DNA from: Thermoanaerobaculia bacterium
Lineage (GTDB): Bacteria > Acidobacteriota > Thermoanaerobaculia > Multivoradales > UBA5704
DNA length: 64,000 bases
Direction: 5' to 3'
NCBI GenBank assembly: GCA_035490435.1
Contig: DATHEF010000027.1
Coordinates: forward strand, 20,193-84,192
The notes beneath the pieces are model-generated. The model saw only the letters and a list, made by a program, of their open reading frames with translations, did no database searches and was not told the origin of the DNA. Position 1 is the stretch's first letter. Every line of letters starts with the position of its first letter. Shown here piece after piece: positions 2,886 through 34,671 of this stretch. Made by a program: the position numbers and the translations under genes.

Positions 2886-4172
2886 TTGCCGAGGTTCCTA
2901 CCGAGGTTCTCCATGAGCTCAGCGCCGGCCGTCACTCCGGAATCCGCCCCCAGCCCCGCCGCGGGGCCGCGGCATCCGCTCACCGTGCCGCATTTCCGCA
3001 ACCTGTGGCTCGGCGCCACGATCTCGCAGCTCGGCGACCAGTTCTATCTGGTGGCGCTCCCCTGGCTGGCGCTGCAACTGACGGGATCGAGCCTGGCGCT
3101 GGGCGCGATCCTGATGACCGCCGCGATTCCACGCGCGGCGCTGATGCTGGTCGGCGGCGCGGTGATCGATCGCTTTTCGGCGCGGCGCGTGCTGATGACC
3201 ACGGGAGCGATCCGCACGGTGCTCGTCGGCACGGTGGCGGCGCTGGTCTGGCTCCGCCTCATCCAGCTCTGGGAGCTCTACGCCCTGACCTTCGCCTTCG
3301 GCGTGGCCGACGCGTTCTCCTTTCCCGCCGGGCCGGCGCTGATGCCGACGCTGGTCGAGACGAACCAGTTGCAGCCCGCGAATGCCCTGATGCAAAGCTC
3401 CACGGTGATGACGCAGATGGCCGGGCCGGCGCCCGCGGGCCTGCTGATCAAAAGCCTCGGCGTCGCCTTCGCGCTCTTCTTCGACGCTCTGAGCTTTCTC
3501 GGCGTGATCGTGGCGCTGCTCAGAATCCCCGATCCACCCAAGGTGCCGCCGGCGGCTGGAGCGCCGGCCCGCCCGAGCATGCTGCACTCCATCGCCGAGG
3601 GATTGCGGGCGGTGCGCAACGATCCACCGTTGCTGTCGTTGATGATCGTGATCGCCACCATCAACATCTGTATTTCCGGGCCGATCGGCGTCGGTCTCGC
3701 CGCGATGGCGAAATTCAACTTCCACTCGGCGGCGGCGTTCGGAACCTTTCTGTCCTGTTTTAGCGGCGGCATGCTGGCGGGGATGCTGGCCGGCGGCATG
3801 GTGAAGCGCCCGCGCCGGCGCGGACTGCAGTTCATCATCATGAGCGGGCTGTGCGGCCTCGAGCTGATCGCCATCGGCCTGATCCTGAAGTTCGCCGCCA
3901 TCGTCGCGCTGCTGGTGGTCATGGGCCTGGGCGTCGGCTTCGTCAACGTGCAGTTCGCCGCCTGGATGCAGATGCGCGTCGAGCGCGCCCTCCTCGGCCG
4001 CGTGATGAGCGTGATGATGTTCTCCGCCGTGGGCCTGGTGCCGATCTCCTACGCCGCCGCCGGCATGTTGGCGAACTGGAGCCTCCCCGCGCTGTTCGTC
4101 ATCGCGGGAGGGATCCTCGCGGGCACCTCCGCCCTGGCGGTATTCGGCAAGGCGGCGCGCGAGATCGACTGA
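2886..4172 (+). CDS. MFS transporter (EntS/DHA3-like)
   Basis: 12 predicted TM helices. N-terminal FRNLWLGATISQLGDQFYLVALPWL and MFS signature GGAVIDRFSARRVLM. Confidence 0.85.
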   Translation: MPRFLPRFSMSSAPAVTPESAPSPAAGPRHPLTVPHFRNLWLGATISQLGDQFYLVALPWLALQLTGSSLALGAILMTAAIPRAALMLVGGAVIDRFSARRVLMTTGAIRTVLVGTVAALVWLRLIQLWELYALTFAFGVADAFSFPAGPALMPTLVETNQLQPANALMQSSTVMTQMAGPAPAGLLIKSLGVAFALFFDALSFLGVIVALLRIPDPPKVPPAAGAPARPSMLHSIAEGLRAVRNDPPLLSLMIVIATINICISGPIGVGLAAMAKFNFHSAAAFGTFLSCFSGGMLAGMLAGGMVKRPRRRGLQFIIMSGLCGLELIAIGLILKFAAIVALLVVMGLGVGFVNVQFAAWMQMRVERALLGRVMSVMMFSAVGLVPISYAAAGMLANWSLPALFVIAGGILAGTSALAVFGKAAREID

Positions 4173-4220
4173 GAACGAGAGACAGCCCACGCAGGGACCG
4201 CCCTTTCCGGGAGGTCCGCC

Positions 4221-4410
4221 GGCGTTTCAGGAGCTCTCGCCAGGGTTTTTCAGACTCTCGCCAGCGCTTCCGAGACTCTCGCCGGCATTTTTCGGACTCC
4301 CGCCAACGTTTCGGAGACTTCCGCCGTCATTTCCGGGGTTATTGCCCGACTTTTCCAGAGGCTTGCCAGCGTTTGGAGAGTCTCGGAAATGTCGGCGAGA
4401 CTCTCCGAAA
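4221..4410. repeat. 8 tandem 21-bp repeats (consensus RGCGTTTYCGGAGACTCTCGCC) followed by a 32-bp palindrome GGAGAGTCTCGGAAATGTCGGCGAGACTCTCC
   Basis: Units read directly at 4221, 4242, 4263, 4284, 4305, 4326, 4347 and 4368. The palindrome spans 4375-4406. Lies in the convergent intergenic gap between the MFS gene (+) and a small membrane-protein gene (-). Confidence 0.8.
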
Positions 4411-4567
4411 CATTTCAGGGAAAGCCGGAGACGCTTCAGCGAGTCTTCGAAAGCCGGGCGAACCTCGAAAACAGGCTGGCGGACGGCAAAATAACCGGAG
4501 CGAATGTCGGGGTAAGGATTCCGCCTCAGAGAAAAACGGTCTGAGTCCTCTCCATAAGGTGGGCCCT

Positions 4568-4756
4568 CTACTTGAATACCCCCACGGCGATCAGGATCAG
4601 GACCAGCAGGAAGATTCCCAGGCAGATGCGGGCTGCGGTCATCAGGTGGGTGTTGCCTACTTGGCGGGTTCCCTTGGTCTTGATACCGGTGAGGGCGACC
4701 AGGGCGATGGCGACGACGACGATTCCGAGGATGACGATCCAGCTCATAGGGCTCAA
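4568..4756 (-). CDS. Small membrane protein (62 aa, DUF1328-like, two TM helices)
   Basis: MSWIVILGIVVVAIALVALTG...ICLGIFLLVLILIAVGV: two hydrophobic helices around a Gly/Lys loop, resembling YqaE/DUF1328-type small membrane proteins. Confidence 0.5.
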   Translation of the reverse strand: MSPMSWIVILGIVVVAIALVALTGIKTKGTRQVGNTHLMTAARICLGIFLLVLILIAVGVFK

Positions 4757-4776
4757 TATGTCACAATCGGAGACCT

Positions 4777-5886
4777 ATGAGATACGCCCTTCGCCTCTCC
4801 GTGCTCCTCCTGGCCGCCGCCCCGGCGCTCTGCGGGCAGACCCCGGCTCCGGCCGAGAGGGACTGCACGCTCCGTGACTTCCATTTCGCGAGCGGCGAGA
4901 CGCTGCCCGAGTTGCGCGTCCACTACACCACTCTCGGCACGCCCGCCAAGGACGCAGCCGGGAAAGTGCGCAACGCCGTGCTGATCCTCCACGGCACGAC
5001 CGGCGATGGAAAGGGTTTCCTTCGTGACCAGTTCTCCGGCCAGCTCTTCGGTCCCGGGCAGACCCTCGACGCGGCGAGCCACTTCATCATCCTCCCGGAC
5101 GGGATCGGCCACGGCAAGTCGAGCCGCCCGAGCGACGGGCTCCACATGCGCTTCCCGAAGTACACCTACGACGACATGGTGCGGGCGCAGCACGATCTGC
5201 TCACCCAATGTCTGAAAGTCGATCACCTCCGCCTGGTGATGGGCACCTCCATGGGCGGCATGCACACCTGGGTCTGGGGGTATACCTATCCCGATTTCAT
5301 GGAGGCCCTGATGCCGCTCGCCAGCGCGCCCGTCGAGATCGCCGGACGCAACCGGATGATGCGGAAGATGATCCTCGATTCGATCACCAGCGATCCCGAG
5401 TGGAAGCACGGCGAATATACCGCTCAGCCCCGCGGGCTCGCCTCGGCGATCCACATCCTGCTCCTGATGGGGTCGAGCCCCCTCCAGTGGCAGAAGGAGG
5501 CCCCGACCCGCGAGAAGGCCGAGGCGCTCCTGGACACCCTGATCCAGCGCCAGGCCGCGATCCTCGACGCCAACGACCTGATCTACCAGTTCGACGCCTC
5601 CAAGAGCTACAACCCCCTCCCCCACCTCGGGAAGATCCGCGCTCCCCTCTTCGCCGTCAATTCCGCGGACGACGAGGTCAATCCGCCGGAGCTCGGCATT
5701 CTCGACGAGGCGATCCACCGCGTCCCCCGCGGCCGGTACATCCTGCTCCCCATCACCGCCGAGACCCGCGGCCATGGCACCCACTCCCTGCCGGCGGTCT
5801 GGGGGAAGTACCTGGCCGAGCTCCTCGCCGGAGCGGAGGGGCCGAAGGCCAGCCTGCAAGCCGGGGGACCGCCTGAGGCCGGATGA
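4777..5886 (+). CDS. Secreted alpha/beta-fold hydrolase (homoserine O-acetyltransferase-like fold)
   Basis: Signal peptide; VLILHGTTGDG plus a nucleophile-elbow-like GTSMGG; length and architecture of MetX-like alpha/beta hydrolases. Its TGA stop overlaps the next gene's ATG (ATGA). Confidence 0.7.
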   Translation: MRYALRLSVLLLAAAPALCGQTPAPAERDCTLRDFHFASGETLPELRVHYTTLGTPAKDAAGKVRNAVLILHGTTGDGKGFLRDQFSGQLFGPGQTLDAASHFIILPDGIGHGKSSRPSDGLHMRFPKYTYDDMVRAQHDLLTQCLKVDHLRLVMGTSMGGMHTWVWGYTYPDFMEALMPLASAPVEIAGRNRMMRKMILDSITSDPEWKHGEYTAQPRGLASAIHILLLMGSSPLQWQKEAPTREKAEALLDTLIQRQAAILDANDLIYQFDASKSYNPLPHLGKIRAPLFAVNSADDEVNPPELGILDEAIHRVPRGRYILLPITAETRGHGTHSLPAVWGKYLAELLAGAEGPKASLQAGGPPEAG

Positions 5887-6692
5887 TATTATCGGCGCCC
5901 ATGGACGCTCTGAGAAGAAACAATGTCAAGCTATCGGGCCCGGAAGGGGGCCAGGCGATGATCTTCGCCCATGGCTTCGGTTGCGATCAGAACATGTGGC
6001 GGTTCGTCACCCCCGCTTTCGAGGAGACGTACCGGATCGTCCTCTTCGACCACGTCGGCGCCGGCCAGTCGGACCCCTCGGCCTACAGCCGCGGCAAGTA
6101 CGAATCGCTGAAGGGCTACGCCAGCGACGTGCTCGAGATCTGCCGCGAGCTGGGGCTGACCCGGGCGATCTTCGTCGGCCACTCGGTGAGCGCGATGATC
6201 GGCGTGCTCGCGGCGCTCCAGGAGCCGGACCGCTTCGAGCGGCTGGTCCTGGTGGGGCCTTCGCCGCGCTACATCGACGACGAAGACTACGCCGGCGGCT
6301 TCAGCCGGGAGGACATCGAGGGTCTGCTCGAAACGCTCGACAGCAACTACCTCGGTTGGTCGACCGCCATGGCGCCGGTGATCATGGGGAACCCGGACCG
6401 CCCCGAGCTCGGGGTGGAGCTGACCAACAGCTTCTGCCGCACCAACCCCGAGATCGCAAAGCACTTCGCCCGCGTCACCTTCCTCTCCGATAACCGGGCT
6501 GACCTCCCGCGGTTGACGACCCGTTCGCTGATCCTGCAATGCCGGGACGACGCCATCGCCCCGCGGTCGGTGGGCGAGTACGTGCACAGCCAGATCCCTG
6601 ACAGCGAGCTGGTGCTGCTGGAGGCGACCGGGCACTGCCCCAACCTGAGCGCTCCGCAAGAGACGATCGCCGCGATCCAGGGGTTCCTCTAG
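5883..6692 (+). CDS. RsbQ-like alpha/beta hydrolase (RsbQ/D14/KAI2 family)
   Basis: Aligns along its whole length with B. subtilis RsbQ from memory (IMFAHGFGCDQNMW, VGHSVSAMIG, LILQCRDDAIAP, GHCPNLSAPQET). Catalytic Ser-His-Asp positions are conserved. Confidence 0.85.
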   Translation: MILSAPMDALRRNNVKLSGPEGGQAMIFAHGFGCDQNMWRFVTPAFEETYRIVLFDHVGAGQSDPSAYSRGKYESLKGYASDVLEICRELGLTRAIFVGHSVSAMIGVLAALQEPDRFERLVLVGPSPRYIDDEDYAGGFSREDIEGLLETLDSNYLGWSTAMAPVIMGNPDRPELGVELTNSFCRTNPEIAKHFARVTFLSDNRADLPRLTTRSLILQCRDDAIAPRSVGEYVHSQIPDSELVLLEATGHCPNLSAPQETIAAIQGFL

Positions 6693-6703
6693 ACGGTGGG
6701 GCT

Positions 6704-8278
6704 TTGACCGACCGCGACGAAACCCAGGGGGCGGGTCCCGCCGCGCCGTTCGAGGAGAGCGTCGAGGACCTCTACGACAACGCCCCCTGCGGTTATCTCT
6801 CGGCGCTCCCCGGCGGGCTGATCGTCAAGGTCAACCAGACCTTTCTGGACTGGACGGGCTACCGGCGGGAGGAGCTCGTCGGCCGCCGGCGGTTTCAGGA
6901 CTTGCTCACCGCCGGCGGCAGGATCTTCCACGAGACGCACTACGCGCCGCTGCTGCGGATGCAAGGGGCGGTGCGCGAGATCGCCGTCGACGTAGTCTGC
7001 CCCGACGGCCGCCGGCTGCCGGCACTGATCAACTCGGTGCTCAAGAAGGATGAAGAGGGCACGCCGCTGCTCGTGCGCACCACGGTCTTCAACGCCACCG
7101 ACCGCAAGGAGTACGAGCGCGAGCTGCTGCGCGAGCGGCAGCGGGCCGAGCAGGAGGCGAAGGCCAAGTCGGACCTGATCTCGATGATCAGCCACGAGAT
7201 CCGCACCCCGCTCAACGCCATCATGGGGGTCGGGCACCTCCTCGGGGCTACCGAGCTCACCGCGCAGCAGCAGAAGTTCGTCCGCATCCTCCGCTCGTCC
7301 TCGGAGAGCCTGCTGGGCCTGATCAACGACATCCTCGATTTCAGCAAGATCGAGGCCGGCAAGGTCGTCCTGGAAGAGCGGAGCGTGGACCTCCGGCAAC
7401 TGATCCACGGCATCGCCGACAACCTCCACGTCAAGGCCGAGGAAAAAGGGCTGGAGCTCGCGGTGCACGTCGACGAGCGGATGCCGGTCTCCGTCCTCGG
7501 CGACCCGATCAAGATCGGGCAGGTGCTCACCAACCTGCTCAGCAACGCCATCAAGTTCACGTCCACGGGGTCGGTGACGGCGACGCTGCAGGTCCGCGAG
7601 CAGATCGCGGACGCGGTGTCGATCGACTTTCAGGTCGCCGACACCGGGATCGGGATCGCCCCGGACCGATTGCCGCACATCTTCGACGAATTCACCCAGG
7701 CCAACTACGACATCGGCCTGAAGTATGGTGGCACCGGCCTCGGGCTATCGATCAGCAAGAAACTGGTGGAGCTGTACGGCAGCCACATCGCCGTCGAGAG
7801 CGAGCTCGGGCGGGGAACGACGTTCTCCTTCGTCCTGCGCCTGCGGACGCCGGAGGCTGGCGAGGCGGCCGGCGAGACCGCCGGTCAGCAGGCTCTACGG
7901 GGGTTGACAGTCCTGGTGGCGGACGACAACGAGGTCAACGTGCTCGTCCTCACCGGGTTCCTGCGGGGGTGGGGCGCCGAGATCGACGTCGTATCCAACG
8001 GCCGGCACGCCGTCGAGCGGATCCAGGAGCGGGATTACGATCTCGTGTTGATGGATCTGCGCATGCCGGAGCTGGACGGCTACGCCGCCACACGCCAGAT
8101 CCGCTCCCTGGCGGACCCGCGATACGCGCGGCTGCCGATCTTCGCGGTCTCGGCCTCCACCCGGATGGGCCATCAGCACGAGCTCGACAACGCCGGTTTC
8201 ACCGAGTTCGTCGGCAAGCCGGTTAGTCCCGAGATCCTGCTCGCGAAGATCGCCCGGCACGCGCGCCGCGATTCCTAG
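6704..8278 (+). CDS. PAS-domain hybrid sensor histidine kinase / response regulator
   Basis: N-terminal PAS, HisKA H-box ISHEIRTPLNAI, HATPase G-boxes (DTGIGI, GGTGLGLSI), and a C-terminal REC domain (LVADDNEVN...DLVLMDLRMPELDG...KP). Confidence 0.9.
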   Translation: MTDRDETQGAGPAAPFEESVEDLYDNAPCGYLSALPGGLIVKVNQTFLDWTGYRREELVGRRRFQDLLTAGGRIFHETHYAPLLRMQGAVREIAVDVVCPDGRRLPALINSVLKKDEEGTPLLVRTTVFNATDRKEYERELLRERQRAEQEAKAKSDLISMISHEIRTPLNAIMGVGHLLGATELTAQQQKFVRILRSSSESLLGLINDILDFSKIEAGKVVLEERSVDLRQLIHGIADNLHVKAEEKGLELAVHVDERMPVSVLGDPIKIGQVLTNLLSNAIKFTSTGSVTATLQVREQIADAVSIDFQVADTGIGIAPDRLPHIFDEFTQANYDIGLKYGGTGLGLSISKKLVELYGSHIAVESELGRGTTFSFVLRLRTPEAGEAAGETAGQQALRGLTVLVADDNEVNVLVLTGFLRGWGAEIDVVSNGRHAVERIQERDYDLVLMDLRMPELDGYAATRQIRSLADPRYARLPIFAVSASTRMGHQHELDNAGFTEFVGKPVSPEILLAKIARHARRDS

Positions 8279-8406
8279 CCCCCACCTGGAACAGCCTCCA
8301 CCGGCGGAATTTTTCGCATGGAGGCACGACAGTTGCTTCCAAACGAGATTCTCGCCCATCCTCATCTGGGGATGACGTGGACCACTCGCTCAGGGAAGGA
8401 GCCTCA

Positions 8407-9483
8407 ATGTTCTACCACGTCAAGGAATTGCAGTTCAACGCGCGGGTTTCGAAGCCGGATCCTCGTTTCGCGACCCTCCTGCTCGAGCAGTTTGGAGGTG
8501 GAAATGGCGAGCTCAAGGCCGCCATGCAGTATTTCGTACAAGCGTTCGGTTGCCGCCAGGCCTATCCCGACAAGTACGACCTGCTGATGGACATCGCCAC
8601 CGAGGAGTTCAGCCATCTCGAGATCGTCGGCGCCACGATCACCATGCTCCTCAACGGCATCAATGGCGAGCTCAAGAACACCGCCGAGCAGAGCGACCTC
8701 ATGCGCCTGCTCAAGGGGAAGGCGGCGAAGGAGGAGTACATCCACGACGCGATCATGAACCCGCACTTCCTCGTCCTTTCCGGCGGCGGACCGACGGTGA
8801 CCGACAGCCAGGGGGTGCCCTGGTCGGGCGCCTACGTCAACGCCAATGGCGACCTCACCGTGGACCTGCGCTCGAACATCGCGGCCGAGTCGCGGGCGAA
8901 GATCGTCTACGAGTACCTCCTCCACTTCACCGACGACCCCCACGTCCATGAGACGCTCCGCTTCCTGATGACCCGCGAAATCGCCCATTTCCAGATGTTC
9001 ACGGCGGCGCTGGAGACCATCCAGCCGAACTTCCCGCCGGGCGTACTGCAGGGGGATCCGCGCTACACCCACACCTACTTCAACATGTCGAACGGCGCCA
9101 GCGCGCGCGGGCCGTGGAACGAGGGCTCGGGCCCGTGGGGGCCGGGCGAGAGCTGGGAGTACATCGACGATCCGCTCCGCCACGTCGTCGAGACGCAGGG
9201 GCTGGTCGACGAGGAGATTCGCGGCACCGACGAGACGCCGGCGGACGCGACGAAGCTCGAGACCGAGCTCGGCGTCCTGCGGAGCGGAGAGGTCAAGTCC
9301 GCCCTTCCCAAGGGCGCCAACCAGTGGTCCAGCTACCCCCAGGATCAGCTCGCCAGCCCGGGGAGCACCCCGGTCGATCCCAACGCCAGCAAGAAGGCGG
9401 GCAAGAAGACCGCCGCCAAGGCCGCCGCGAAGACCGGCGGAAAGGCCAGCTCGAAGCCGGCATCGAGGCCCAGCCCAGCCTAA
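8407..9483 (+). CDS. Manganese catalase (Mn-containing, YdbD/KatN-like) with Lys/Ala-rich C-terminal tail
   Basis: MFYHVKELQF N-terminus and di-Mn ligand context (EEFSHLE, REIAHFQMF). AGGAG RBS 7 nt upstream of the ATG at 8407. The six-frame ORF start at 8377 is probably upstream of the true start. Confidence 0.85.
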   Translation: MFYHVKELQFNARVSKPDPRFATLLLEQFGGGNGELKAAMQYFVQAFGCRQAYPDKYDLLMDIATEEFSHLEIVGATITMLLNGINGELKNTAEQSDLMRLLKGKAAKEEYIHDAIMNPHFLVLSGGGPTVTDSQGVPWSGAYVNANGDLTVDLRSNIAAESRAKIVYEYLLHFTDDPHVHETLRFLMTREIAHFQMFTAALETIQPNFPPGVLQGDPRYTHTYFNMSNGASARGPWNEGSGPWGPGESWEYIDDPLRHVVETQGLVDEEIRGTDETPADATKLETELGVLRSGEVKSALPKGANQWSSYPQDQLASPGSTPVDPNASKKAGKKTAAKAAAKTGGKASSKPASRPSPA

Positions 9484-31840: not shown

Positions 31841-32535
31841 AGGTTTGGTCCCGGGACCCTCACCGCGGAGCCATTGACGGCTACCGCGGCGGCGGTCGTG
31901 AGGAAGTGGATGACCGACGCGACATCCTCGGTCTTTGCCCATTGGGAAGGATCGGCGTCAGGCATCGCCGTCCGGTTCGCGGGGGTGTCCATGGTGCCGG
32001 GGAGCACGGCGTTGGCCCGTCCTCCGAACGGCGCCATCTCGCGCGCCAGCGACTCGACCATGCGCAACACCCCGGCCTTGGTGGCGGCGTACCCTCCAAC
32101 CCCGGCCTCTCCCAGGAGAGCCGCCGGAGCCGACACCGCGACCACCACGCCGCCGCCCGCCCGCTCGAACCGGCGGGCGCACTCGCGGAAGACGCGGAAC
32201 GTGGTGTCGAGATTGAGCTTGAACAGATAGGACCAGTCGGCGTCCGAGAGGTCGGCGAGGCGCGACCAGCGGAAGCCGCCGACCAGATGGACCACGGCCC
32301 GGGGCACCCCCGCGCCGCTCTCCTCCTCGTCGAACAGCCGCTCCACCTCGGGGGTGGACGACAGGTCCGCGCGCCGCGCGGTCAGCACGTCCGCGGATCC
32401 CAGCGGCGTCAGCTCTGCCAGGGCGGCTTCGGTCGCTCCAACGGCGAGGACACTGTCGCCAGCCGCCAGGAACCGCTCCACCACGCTCCGCCCGAGGGCG
32501 CCCGAAGCGCCGGTGATGAGAACTCGACCGCTCAT
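31837..32535 (-). CDS. SDR-family oxidoreductase
   Basis: TGASGALG Rossmann motif and YAATK catalytic motif. Confidence 0.85.
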   Translation of the reverse strand: MSGRVLITGASGALGRSVVERFLAAGDSVLAVGATEAALAELTPLGSADVLTARRADLSSTPEVERLFDEEESGAGVPRAVVHLVGGFRWSRLADLSDADWSYLFKLNLDTTFRVFRECARRFERAGGGVVVAVSAPAALLGEAGVGGYAATKAGVLRMVESLAREMAPFGGRANAVLPGTMDTPANRTAMPDADPSQWAKTEDVASVIHFLTTAAAVAVNGSAVRVPGPNL

Positions 32536-32644
32536 GCTCTCTCCAGGGTTGGGTACGGCAAGGGCACGGCCCCCGCCCAGCCCTATGAGTGCCGGGAGGG
32601 ACCGCGAGCGAGACTATCATGGTCGAGGCAGGAGAGTGGGCGGG

Positions 32645-32673
32645 TTGACGGGAGGCGTGCGGAGACGTAAAAT
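32645..32673 (+). promoter_or_regulatory. Near-consensus sigma70-type promoter TTGACG-17-TAAAAT driving a leaderless ATG at 32680
   Basis: Hexamers and 17-nt spacer read directly. The ATG lies 6 nt after the -10. Confidence 0.6.
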
Positions 32674-32679
32674 CGCGTC

Positions 32680-32865
32680 ATGACGAAACGCGTTATCCTG
32701 CCTCCACTCAAGAAGGGCTCACGGACCCCCGAGGAGATCCGCGAGGCGGTGAGGGTCGTGATGACAACCCGGGATGCAGCGACCTGGCAGAAGGTACAGC
32801 GGTTCGATCCGGACCCCATCGTGATCGTCGCGGACCCGCCTTCAGGCACGCGTGAAGACCGTTAA
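32680..32865 (+). CDS. Small hypothetical protein (61 aa) at the head of the low-GC islet
   Basis: Positioned exactly at the leaderless promoter, with no recognisable domain. Same frame as the downstream TIR-like ORF, separated from it by a TAA and 8 codons. Confidence 0.4.
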   Translation: MTKRVILPPLKKGSRTPEEIREAVRVVMTTRDAATWQKVQRFDPDPIVIVADPPSGTREDR

Positions 32866-32889
32866 CCAATCCCTCTATCCCCTTTTCCC

Positions 32890-33528
32890 TTGTCCGAACC
32901 AGGTTCGCGTCCCACTGGGACTGCCTATCGTCAGAGCGTTTTCATCAACTGCCCTTTCGACCTTCAGTACCAGCCCCTCTTCGAAGCCATCGTCTTCGCG
33001 GTTTCCGACTGCGGATTTCAACCTCGTAGCGCATTGGAAATTGATGACGGAAGCCAGATCAGGATTCAGAACATCTTCAGCATCATCTCCGGCTGCAAGT
33101 TCGGTATCCACGATATCTCGAAGACGGAACTAGACGCGGTCAACCAGCTTCCGCGGTTCAACATGCCCCTGGAACTGGGCGTTTTTCTCGGCGCCAAGAG
33201 ATACGGACAGGGCGGACAGAAAGAAAAGATCTGCCTGATCCTGGACCGAGCCAGCTACCGGTACCAGAAGTTCCTCTCGGATATCGCTGGACAGGACATC
33301 CGTGCTCACGGAGATGACCCTAGAATGGCGATTTCCCTTGTAAGGAACTGGCTTCGCAATGCCTCGCCGCTGATCACCATGCCGGGGGGTGAAGCGATCG
33401 GTGACCGTTACCATGAGTTTCGTAACGCGCTCCCCTCCCTCTGCCGTACCCTGAAACTCTCGACGCTCGAGCTGACCTTTACCGACTACAGGTGGCTCAT
33501 CGCTGCATGGCTCGATCAGAATCCTTAA
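32890..33528 (+). CDS. TIR-like / SLOG-fold nucleotide-binding domain protein (COG4271-like) with unknown C-terminal domain
   Basis: ~50% GC against a ~70% background. Has VFINCPF beta-strand 1, helices, and an NMPLELGVFLG motif like the conserved NVLFELGYALG of TIR-like/deoxyribosyltransferase-fold proteins. Only a TTG start is available. Confidence 0.45.
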   Translation: MSEPGSRPTGTAYRQSVFINCPFDLQYQPLFEAIVFAVSDCGFQPRSALEIDDGSQIRIQNIFSIISGCKFGIHDISKTELDAVNQLPRFNMPLELGVFLGAKRYGQGGQKEKICLILDRASYRYQKFLSDIAGQDIRAHGDDPRMAISLVRNWLRNASPLITMPGGEAIGDRYHEFRNALPSLCRTLKLSTLELTFTDYRWLIAAWLDQNP

Positions 33529-33539
33529 TTCTCTAGAAG

Positions 33540-33568
33540 TTGGGCCAAACCCCCGGCCGGGCTACAAT
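33540..33568 (+). promoter_or_regulatory. Sigma70-type promoter TTGGGC-17-TACAAT with leaderless ATG at 33578
   Basis: Read directly. The ATG lies 9 nt downstream of the -10. Confidence 0.5.
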
Positions 33569-33577
33569 CCCCCGGCC

Positions 33578-34393
33578 ATGCCGTCCCGCCGCATCTTCCC
33601 GCCCGAGCCCGCCGTCACCGGGGAGACCCGCATACAGCGCTGGCGGCGCAAGCGGCGCACCTACGTCCTGCGCTGGTTCGACCGCGCGATCCTCTCCCTC
33701 TACCGGATGATCCACTGGCTCGACCGCAAGGCTCCCGTCGAGAGGCGCTACTTCCGGGTGGCGATCTTCGGCTCCAGCCGCATCCAGCCGGAGGACGAGA
33801 CCTATGCCCAGGTGCGCGAGCTCGCCCGCCAGCTCTCCTACATGGGGTGCGACATCGTCACCGGCGGCGGCCCCGGCCTGATGCGGGCGGCCAACGAGGG
33901 GGCCCGGGCCGGCGCCTACCACTACAAGACCCGCTCCTTCGGGCTCACCATCCTCCTGCCCATGGAGGAGCAGCCCAATCCCTTCATCGACGAGGTGGCC
34001 CAGCACTCGATGTTCTTCTCCCGCCTCCACCAGTTCATCCGCCTCTCGCACGCCTACATCGTGATGGACGGCGGCATCGGCACCACCCTGGAGGCGATGA
34101 TGGTCTGGCAGCTCCTGCAGGTGCGGCTGATGAGCGGCCGGACGCTCATCTTCGTGGGGCCGATGTGGCGGGGCTTGCGGAGCTGGATCGAGCGCGAGAT
34201 CATCGGACGCGGACTCGCCTCGCCGCCGGATCTCGACCTCGCCGTCTGGGTGGATACCGTCGACGAAGCCCTGGAGGTGGTGACGCGCGCGCTCGCGGAT
34301 TTCCTCCGCCAGCACAAGGTGATCCTCCCGCCGGCGCTGGAAGAGCCGCCCGGAGGGGCCCCCGTGATCCCGGTCGGCCCCGAGGTCGAGTGA
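33578..34393 (+). CDS. LOG-family protein (cytokinin riboside 5'-monophosphate phosphoribohydrolase-like, TIGR00730)
   Basis: Rossmann motifs VTGGGPGLMRAANEGA and IVMDGGIGTTLE. Confidence 0.8.
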   Translation: MPSRRIFPPEPAVTGETRIQRWRRKRRTYVLRWFDRAILSLYRMIHWLDRKAPVERRYFRVAIFGSSRIQPEDETYAQVRELARQLSYMGCDIVTGGGPGLMRAANEGARAGAYHYKTRSFGLTILLPMEEQPNPFIDEVAQHSMFFSRLHQFIRLSHAYIVMDGGIGTTLEAMMVWQLLQVRLMSGRTLIFVGPMWRGLRSWIEREIIGRGLASPPDLDLAVWVDTVDEALEVVTRALADFLRQHKVILPPALEEPPGGAPVIPVGPEVE

Positions 34394-34398
34394 GCTTG

Positions 34399-34671
34399 GC
34401 GACCCGCGGTTTCAACTCTCCGACCCACGGTCCGAGGACTCCGACCCGTGGGTTCAAGATCCCGACCCGCGGGTCCGACTCTCCGACCCATGGATCCAGC
34501 ACTCCGACCCACGGGTCCACTTCTCCGGACCACGGGTCCAAGACTCCGACCCCCGGGTCCGACTCTCCGGACCGCGGGTCCGCCCCTCCGACCCACGGGT
34601 CCGGCTTTCCAATTCACGGGTCCGACTCCGCGGACCACGGGTCCGGCGCTGCAAACCGCGGGTCCGGCCGC
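34399..34671. repeat. 13 tandem 21-bp repeats, consensus CGACCCRCGGGTCCGACTCTC, each containing the 12-bp palindrome GACCCNNGGGTC
   Basis: Units enumerated directly from the sequence. The array fills the gap between the LOG gene and tolQ. No start-codon-bearing ORF spans it. Confidence 0.85.

Follow-up and report, generated by a model that had tools for sequence, protein, structure and literature searches.

The lowest-GC stretch in 64 kb of DNA from a Thermoanaerobaculia bacterium (64,000 nucleotides, hereafter the window) lies at 32540-33570 and carries two small open reading frames, which raises the question as to whether this islet is a recent import and what its two reading frames might do. 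An initial annotation had put its GC content at ~50%, a figure that is somewhat too low; the contrast itself is real, with a GC of 0.55 against 0.688 for the window. In 640-bp subwindows across the 64 kb, the GC minimum starts at 32901 (0.55, z = -4.2), and in 300-bp subwindows the floor is 0.54. The first reading frame, of 61 aa (32680-32865, forward strand), has a GC of 0.624, and the second, of 212 aa (32890-33528, forward strand), a GC of 0.554 and a GC3 of 0.68, below that of its flanks. As the initial annotation had described, the two are separated by a single TAA and eight codons, share a frame, and the longer one starts at a TTG.

Expression signals and a conserved partner gene

The pair is preceded by a sigma-70-type promoter, TTGACG-17-TAAAAT (32645-32673, forward strand), which agrees with the consensus at 10 of 12 positions and consists of a -35 hexamer TTGACG at 32645-32650, a 17-nt spacer and a -10 hexamer TAAAAT at 32668-32673. 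It is the only site returned by a promoter scan of 32300-33800, where 0.4 sites are expected by chance. The ATG of the small gene at 32680 is 6 nt past the -10 hexamer, a position that implies, from sequence, a leaderless mRNA for the first cistron. The TTGAC-N-17-TAnnnT-6 nt-ATG geometry is kept in the window and in the related loci L002, L007, L008, L009, L017 and L023 despite sequence change, which supports this assignment. No intrinsic terminator was found between the two genes, the sole forward-strand site falling inside coding sequence, and no Rfam RNA family was found in 32400-33700.

Translation of the second gene is likely to be either weak or coupled to that of the first. The 24-nt intergenic spacer (32866-32889, forward strand; 24-87 nt in syntenic relatives) is pyrimidine-rich, and a Shine-Dalgarno sequence was found before the enzyme gene neither in the window nor in any relative. 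There is no ATG or GTG between the TAA and the conserved VFINCPF, leaving the TTG at 32890 as the sole canonical start, in agreement with the weak start described earlier. Homologues begin MGTAY..., and alignment together with DNA comparison against L002 and L001 places an ACT codon (32914-32916, forward strand) at the position of the ancestral ATG, both in the window and in L001. With this ATG lost, initiation would shift to the TTG, which lies in frame 8 codons upstream and is kept in L002. In P0001 the start is evidently not ATG, the N-terminus reading A-G-T-A-Y after a TTG-encoded start. Gene overlaps of the ATGA type, or abutting genes, are seen on alphaproteobacterial plasmids as well as in L097, and it is this overlap, together with the missing Shine-Dalgarno sequence and the TTG start here, that suggests weak or coupled translation of the enzyme.

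The central point, absent from the initial annotation, is that the 61-aa reading frame is, judged by its orthologues upstream of the TIR-like gene in syntenic loci, a conserved partner gene. Its product is basic over the N-terminal half (pI 10.9), with a tail that is acidic and rich in Pro (pI 4.9), and an identical protein (P0368) from a Thermoanaerobaculia MAG is annotated as 'hypothetical protein [Thermoanaerobaculia bacterium]'. In relatives, the reading frame preceding the enzyme gene encodes 57-114 aa (57-71 aa in the window and its clade), of which the first ~30 residues are conserved. An HMM iterated on six-frame translations of 82 loci defined a conserved ~26-residue motif, KRVILPPLKKGSRTPEEIREAVRVVM (32686-32763, forward strand), with the general form R-x-[IV]-x-x-P-x-K-x-G-x-[VLR]-[ST]-x-x-x-[IV]-[RK]-x-A-V-x-x-V. 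In 61 of the 82 loci, covering at least 14 phyla, the motif adjoins the TIR-like gene and is read in the same direction. Only four matches lie elsewhere in these loci, three of them extra copies close by, and the whole 64-kb window contains a single match. There is no Pfam or NCBIfam model for the motif, and a profile search with it returned 181 proteins, the window's own included, all of them hypothetical.

The context of the motif differs among lineages. In most phyla it is upstream of the enzyme gene, at one end or the other (N- or C-terminus) of a small protein that is often Lys/Ala/Ser-rich. In Poribacteria it is found 8-52 nt downstream, where it heads either small proteins or larger ones, namely CD-NTases, a TPR protein, DUF2188 proteins and URI/GIY-YIG-like proteins. 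The motif-CD-NTase fusion matches the PADLOC Cyclase model (1e-127) as well as Pfam DncV-like/SMODS; the Pfam matches occur in the partner proteins of three Poribacteria loci (L031, L056 and L065), and the PADLOC Cyclase model matches 2 of 114 neighbour proteins scanned. An AF2 run on both proteins of the window, joined by their natural in-frame spacer with X in place of the stop (alignment A5), gave no confident contact, with the partner modelled at a pLDDT of 32-52.

The 212-aa TIR-like protein

The 212-aa protein has no match in Pfam (E <= 1), NCBIfam, PADLOC or PDB sequences. An identical product is called in other assemblies, and a 90% database holds more than 7,897 homologues, all 'hypothetical'; clustered at 50% identity, the results of an exhaustive profile search come to 3,346 representatives, of which 781 fall below 1e-30. 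The proteins stand alone, at ~204 aa, and are distributed over at least 14 phyla with 51-61% identity to the window protein across phyla. Hosts include Acidobacteriota, Planctomycetota, Poribacteria, Verrucomicrobiota, Gemmatimonadota, Latescibacteria, Desulfobacterota and Nitrospirota, as well as Bacteroidota/Chlorobi/Ignavibacteria/Rhodothermales, Cyanobacteria, Alpha- and Gammaproteobacteria, and others.

The AF2 model (pLDDT 81, pTM 0.82) consists of a TIR/NDT-like alpha/beta domain (about residues 15-140; 32932-33309, forward strand) followed by a three-helix C-terminal domain (about residues 144-210; 33319-33519, forward strand) modelled at a pLDDT of 90-97. In Foldseek searches against the PDB the alpha/beta domain is flavodoxin-like, with generic matches in which CheY-like receivers come top, as high as TIR/NDT, so that the fold by itself is generic. 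In a search of viral models, the third-ranked match is a Cap12/Pycsar TIR protein. Structure searches returned no known counterpart of the C-terminal domain, the matches ending at the alpha/beta domain; this helical domain may serve in docking or oligomerisation. A recurrent C-terminal extension of ~100 residues is seen on some proteins with the enzyme domain.

Scored over 92 diverse family members, residues N20, R58, H74, D75, S77, R89, N91, E95, G97, S130, D131, D136 and H140 are invariant or nearly invariant. A profile of the family core only (A8) had one PDB match, Cap12 SfSTING (7un8), at an E-value of 0.51 that is suggestive only. This alignment sets the family's pRfNmplElGlFlGa against KPRDNVVFEFGLFLGA, and if an inferred 8-residue offset in chain numbering is assumed, the putative active-site motif R89-F-N91-M-P-L-E95 (33154-33174, forward strand) falls on Cap12 R78, N80 and E84, the ribose/phosphate-coordinating and catalytic residues of that enzyme (Morehouse et al., PMC9402430). 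Sub-threshold matches to PF10137, the Cap12/Pycsar TIR family, occur in 26 of 118 diverse members (best E 4.2e-4), and no other family recurs; at E <= 0.1, neither DUF4062 nor any other TIR-like model outside PF10137 is among the recurring Pfam families of the 118. Neither the single protein nor alignment A1 gave a meaningful match when searched against PDB sequences. PDB profile matches obtained with alignment A2 were discarded, as they came from fused TIR_2 segments and not from the family core. Six cluster representatives carry a canonical TIR_2 domain (at times SEFIR-like) N-terminal to the family domain, and hhalign found no relation between these TIR_2 domains and the family (probability 1% or less).

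We therefore regard the 212-aa protein, by sequence comparison, as representing a new TIR-like family that is nearest to PF10137 and is not a member by the curated test, since the window protein does not reach the gathering score of 24.7 bits. The initial annotation had labelled it TIR-like/SLOG. The TIR/NDT-like part of this label holds up in the AF2 model and the Cap12 alignment; SLOG/LOG membership does not, the protein matching SLOG/LOG no better than other Rossmannoid folds.

Age and mobility of the locus

The pair sits in a conserved gene order, ETF-Grx-SDR-[small + TIR-like]-LOG-ExbB-ExbD-TonB, which the window shares with L001, L002-L006, L008, L009, L011, L017 and L023. L095 has the same order without SDR, and L007 lacks LOG and retains the pair. 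The initial annotation had taken the low GC as a sign of horizontal acquisition. As a recent event this does not survive comparison with relatives: the pair occupies the same locus in at least nine Thermoanaerobaculia/Acidobacteriota genomes, and the TIR-like protein diverges from 98.6% down to 57% identity, with relatives ranked as they are by the flanking proteins (98% to 65-77%), a pattern that fits a gene descending vertically but evolving faster. Measured against L001, the TIR-like gene has three times the dS of LOG, and its GC3 is 0.65-0.74 against 0.86-0.96 for the flanks in all seven genomes compared. Judged from these sequences, the low GC of the pair is old and persistent rather than the trace of a recent import. 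Beyond this clade, the gene is GC-poorer than its surroundings in nearly all of 80 genomes from many phyla.

The downstream gene (33578-34393) does belong to the LOG family, as the initial annotation said (PF03641, 1.2e-16; PF18306, 4.6e-9), and a functional link between it and the pair had been proposed. LOG adjacency was not seen in other phyla; only one syntenic clade has it, and L007 has lost it. On this comparative evidence, the link is one of local synteny only. Elsewhere, the enzyme gene is present on 17 plasmids, once as cargo beside TniA/B/Q transposition genes. A phage collection held no homologue of the enzyme gene, a result that is uninformative either way. Neighbourhoods across phyla are heterogeneous and most neighbours are ordinary metabolic genes. 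Those in Poribacteria are rich in Eco57I-type restriction-modification, AbiJ-NTD4/DUF7014, AAA_21/AAA_15 ATPases and PIN/DUF433 pairs, and the ThsB, CapP and PbeA models match one neighbouring protein each. Thermoanaerobaculia pass the pair on stably within a housekeeping locus (ETF-Grx-SDR | LOG-ExbBD-TonB) and not in a defence island, which is unusual for defence genes.

A putative two-gene conflict module

How does the pair compare with known systems? By analogy, it would work most like the Cap12/Pycsar TIR effectors and DUF4062/Swarozyc. With Cap12/Pycsar it shares the flavodoxin-like TIR fold and the motif pR-x-N-x-x-x-E-x-G-x-F-x-G that aligns to the Cap12 residues, and the model and alignment together place the putative catalytic Glu on helix alpha-C with the predicted substrate-coordinating R and N, as in the PF10137 fold. 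Unlike Cap12/Pycsar proteins, the family carries the unrelated three-helix domain, and Pfam and fold searches found no STING, SAVED or cNMP-binding sensor in it. A cyclase gene, as in CBASS and Pycsar, was found neither in the window nor in most family genomes; the constant partner is instead a small protein bearing the novel motif, and the bona fide CD-NTase that adjoins the enzyme gene in the three Poribacteria loci has this motif at its N-terminus. The pair does not qualify as Thoeris, with its ThsB TIR and ThsA-type effector: PADLOC has no match for the pair, and the partner lacks an effector domain. A Thoeris survey set aside stand-alone TIRs and TIRs in CBASS, Pycsar and pAgo contexts (10.64898/2025.12.03.692087).

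Swarozyc/DUF4062 is described as a TIR-like NADase with a helical 'stalk' and a catalytic E97 in KpSwz (bioRxiv 10.64898/2026.05.01.722283). Both families are TIR-like and distant from canonical TIR/NDT, both have a conserved Glu (E97 in KpSwz, E95 here) with a helical part after it, and both are recently recognised orphan TIR-like families of about 200 residues. Swarozyc is reported to be activated by the phage portal (10.64898/2026.05.01.722283); in the present family a small, conserved gene is an almost obligatory partner.

A further comparison is with type II toxin-antitoxin and NADase-immunity pairs, which in general are built from a pair of short genes in the same orientation, the upstream one encoding a small protein. 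The present genes are likewise closely spaced or ATGA-overlapping, with weak translation signals for the second gene, and are found on plasmids and among toxin-antitoxin genes. The partner differs in matching no antitoxin family and in having only ~26 conserved residues, and searches of Pfam, NCBIfam and PADLOC with the pair returned no toxin-antitoxin family model. The partner may also lie downstream or be fused to large sensor-like or enzymatic domains, so a docking peptide fits better than a classical antitoxin.

Our preferred reading is that the islet is a self-contained two-gene conflict module of abortive-infection or toxin-antitoxin-like type, made up of a TIR-like NADase effector and a small regulatory or docking partner; we give it a probability of roughly 0.55. 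The initial annotation had suggested a compact defence or nucleotide-signalling module, and a conflict module is the most plausible account in view of the partner gene, the domain fusions, the copies on plasmids and, in other lineages, neighbours belonging to defence islands. One promoter would give a leaderless mRNA with the small motif protein as cistron 1 and the enzyme as cistron 2. The ~26-residue motif, predicted to form a short strand and then an amphipathic helix, would bind the cistron-2 product, a 212-aa protein combining a putative TIR-like N-glycosidase domain, which appears to retain the set of catalytic residues R-x-N-x3-E known from the TIR NADase Cap12, with the helical domain. 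Once released or activated, probably via oligomerisation by analogy with other TIR enzymes, the enzyme would most likely cleave NAD+ or a related nucleotide and so arrest the cell. The small partner could either keep the enzyme inactive, like a labile antitoxin, or dock a sensing module onto it, and weak or coupled translation of the second gene would hold the enzyme level below that of the partner. The partner of this clade would then be a minimal and probably labile version, while the same motif, which in other lineages heads CD-NTases, TPR proteins, DUF2188 and nuclease-like domains, may there tether sensor-like or signalling domains. What we infer for the pair is that the two proteins bind each other, that the enzyme is an NADase, that it is toxic and that the pair acts in defence.

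Several other explanations have to be weighed. The pair could serve housekeeping salvage, with the 212-aa protein an NDT/DNPH1/MilB-type N-glycosidase or transferase beside the LOG (PpnN-like) nucleosidase and the small reading frame an accessory or regulatory peptide. We consider this unlikely, because L007 retains the pair without LOG, LOG adjacency is missing in other phyla, and the family is patchily distributed with >50% identity across phyla and a GC below that of its host almost everywhere. The pair behaves in genomes as a mobile two-gene module, with plasmid copies and transposon cargo, and its obligatory partner motif fused to CD-NTase and TPR proteins, the canonical TIR fused to the family domain and the lack of any sequence-model match to NDT/DNPH1/MilB (the NDT Pfam model matches 0 of 118 members) speak against salvage as well. 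The TIR-like protein might instead be a ThsB-like signal producer or scaffold, and the partner, often basic and H1-like or DUF2188, an effector or nucleic-acid sensor. Certain bacterial TIRs are indeed known as signal producers (10.64898/2025.12.03.692087); many partners are Lys/Ala/Ser-rich and basic or have DUF2188 or URI-nuclease-like domains, and the partner in the three Poribacteria loci, being a CD-NTase, generates signals of its own. Even so, this seems quite improbable: at 57-71 aa, the partner in the window and its clade has no effector-like domain, no nucleotide-signal receptor domain (SLOG, Macro, SAVED or STING) was found in the pair, and the conserved R-x-N-x3-E favours catalysis, although this motif does not distinguish hydrolysis from cyclisation.

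Two explanations concern the gene structure itself. Given that the ancestral ATG has become ACT and that only a TTG without a Shine-Dalgarno sequence is left, the enzyme gene might be a decaying pseudogene within an old foreign insertion. The dN/dS against L001 is however 0.03 (27 synonymous and 3 non-synonymous differences, with all 212 codons intact) within the ATG-less lineage, which indicates a functional enzyme gene, and both the conservation of the same in-frame TTG in L002 and the retention of all invariant residues make decay very improbable. A split gene, or programmed stop-codon read-through joining the 61-aa and 212-aa reading frames, had been raised in the initial annotation, and in the window the shared frame, the one TAA with 8 sense codons after it and the second reading frame without ATG or Shine-Dalgarno sequence could suggest it. 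The start-to-start offset nevertheless varies (0, 2, 0, 2, 2, 1, mod 3) in seven syntenic relatives, so that the shared frame in the window is a matter of chance and the idea is rejected. The variable spacer, the stand-alone family members and the downstream position of the partner in Poribacteria agree with this, and none of the long cluster representatives examined has an N-terminal motif-domain fusion; we regard a split gene as scarcely credible.

The proposed conflict module would have wider implications. TIR and TIR-like NADases are central immunity effectors of bacteria, plants and animals, and orphan TIR-like families, DUF4062/Swarozyc for example, are still becoming recognised systems. 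Here, a large enzyme family lacking Pfam, NCBIfam and PADLOC models, together with its partner motif, appears to be undescribed, and we found no description of either in the literature; describing the family would annotate thousands of 'hypothetical proteins'. There is also a methodological lesson. Low GC here marks an old, stably inherited module rather than a recent transfer: with the same locus throughout the clade and divergence ranked like that of the flanks, the equation of low GC with recent acquisition fails. That the module consists of two small genes makes the whole model directly testable. It is possible, if on balance doubtful, that the pair represents a widespread undescribed immune or addiction system, in which a new TIR-like NADase family is wired through a portable docking motif of ~26 residues instead of a diffusible nucleotide, the motif being used alone or grafted onto CD-NTase, TPR, DUF2188 and nuclease modules, and that the pair has been fixed at one Thermoanaerobaculia locus for the whole history of the clade with its foreign codon composition kept. 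The presence of the motif at the head of CD-NTases and TPR proteins would then mean that peptide docking wires sensors to a TIR effector.

Base composition of the TIR-like gene

In seven genomes that inherited this locus from a common ancestor, the GC content at third codon positions (GC3) of the TIR-like gene is 0.65-0.74, vs. 0.86-0.96 for the flanking genes; this comparison took in the window gene (32890-33528) and its homologues at loci L002, L007, L008, L009, L011 and L017. The TIR-like gene, whose synonymous divergence is 3x that of the LOG gene, has not ameliorated in GC3 during the lifetime of the clade.

The other GC-poor stretches of the window are at 4172-4780 and 8377-9483 (GC 0.59-0.61). 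The former is a gap of ~600 nt, with an MFS-type transporter ORF on one side and a hydrolase ORF on the other, and the latter is an ORF whose translation, judged by eye, reads like a manganese catalase.

The downstream LOG gene

The initial annotation assigned the LOG gene its own leaderless promoter. Within 33540-33580, a TACAAT (33563-33568) lies 9 nt upstream of the LOG ATG and is itself preceded, 17 nt upstream, by TTGGGC; this promoter-like site scores under the threshold of the promoter scan. The TACAAT-9 nt-ATG arrangement appears to be kept in L002 and L009, as read from six-frame translations running through the LOG start, making a very short leader on the LOG mRNA probable, in agreement with that assignment. 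At locus L007 (4001-4719; Acidobacteriota chromosome OY970373.1), the order SDR, small partner gene, TIR-like gene and ExbB is retained, but the module is followed by ExbB with LOG missing in between. Adjacency of LOG to the module is therefore dispensable.

In the LOG-ExbB intergenic region of the window (34400-34665), the 21-nt unit CGACCCACGGGTCCRACTCTC is repeated ~12 times in tandem (TRF score 171-201), each copy with the palindromic core GACCC-AC-GGGTC. The array is absent from L002, where the LOG-ExbB gap is 81 nt; at L090 the gap equals that of the window in size (373 nt).

Partner paralogues and the C-terminal extension

In Poribacteria, locus L052 has three paralogous motif-bearing partner genes (4621-4902, 5138-5389 and 6573-6962) downstream of a single TIR-like gene, and chromosome OZ246979.1 has two copies of the module (L051 and L056). 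Some Thermoanaerobaculia partner proteins of 114-138 aa (L017, 3609-3953; L023; P0342; P0311; P0344) contain the motif twice, the first copy reading KR.I.PPLK.GSRTPEE.R.AV.KV and the second, further along, KR.L..P......A.I.AAVEKV.

A C-terminal extension of ~100 residues, without a Pfam match, recurs on the TIR-like proteins P0133, P0152, P0188, P0197, P0148 and P0193, with the pattern ...FxILxKxGSGLSYxQ...LEYQxGSLDEHY... This extension may represent an alternative sensor domain, built into the TIR-like protein itself.
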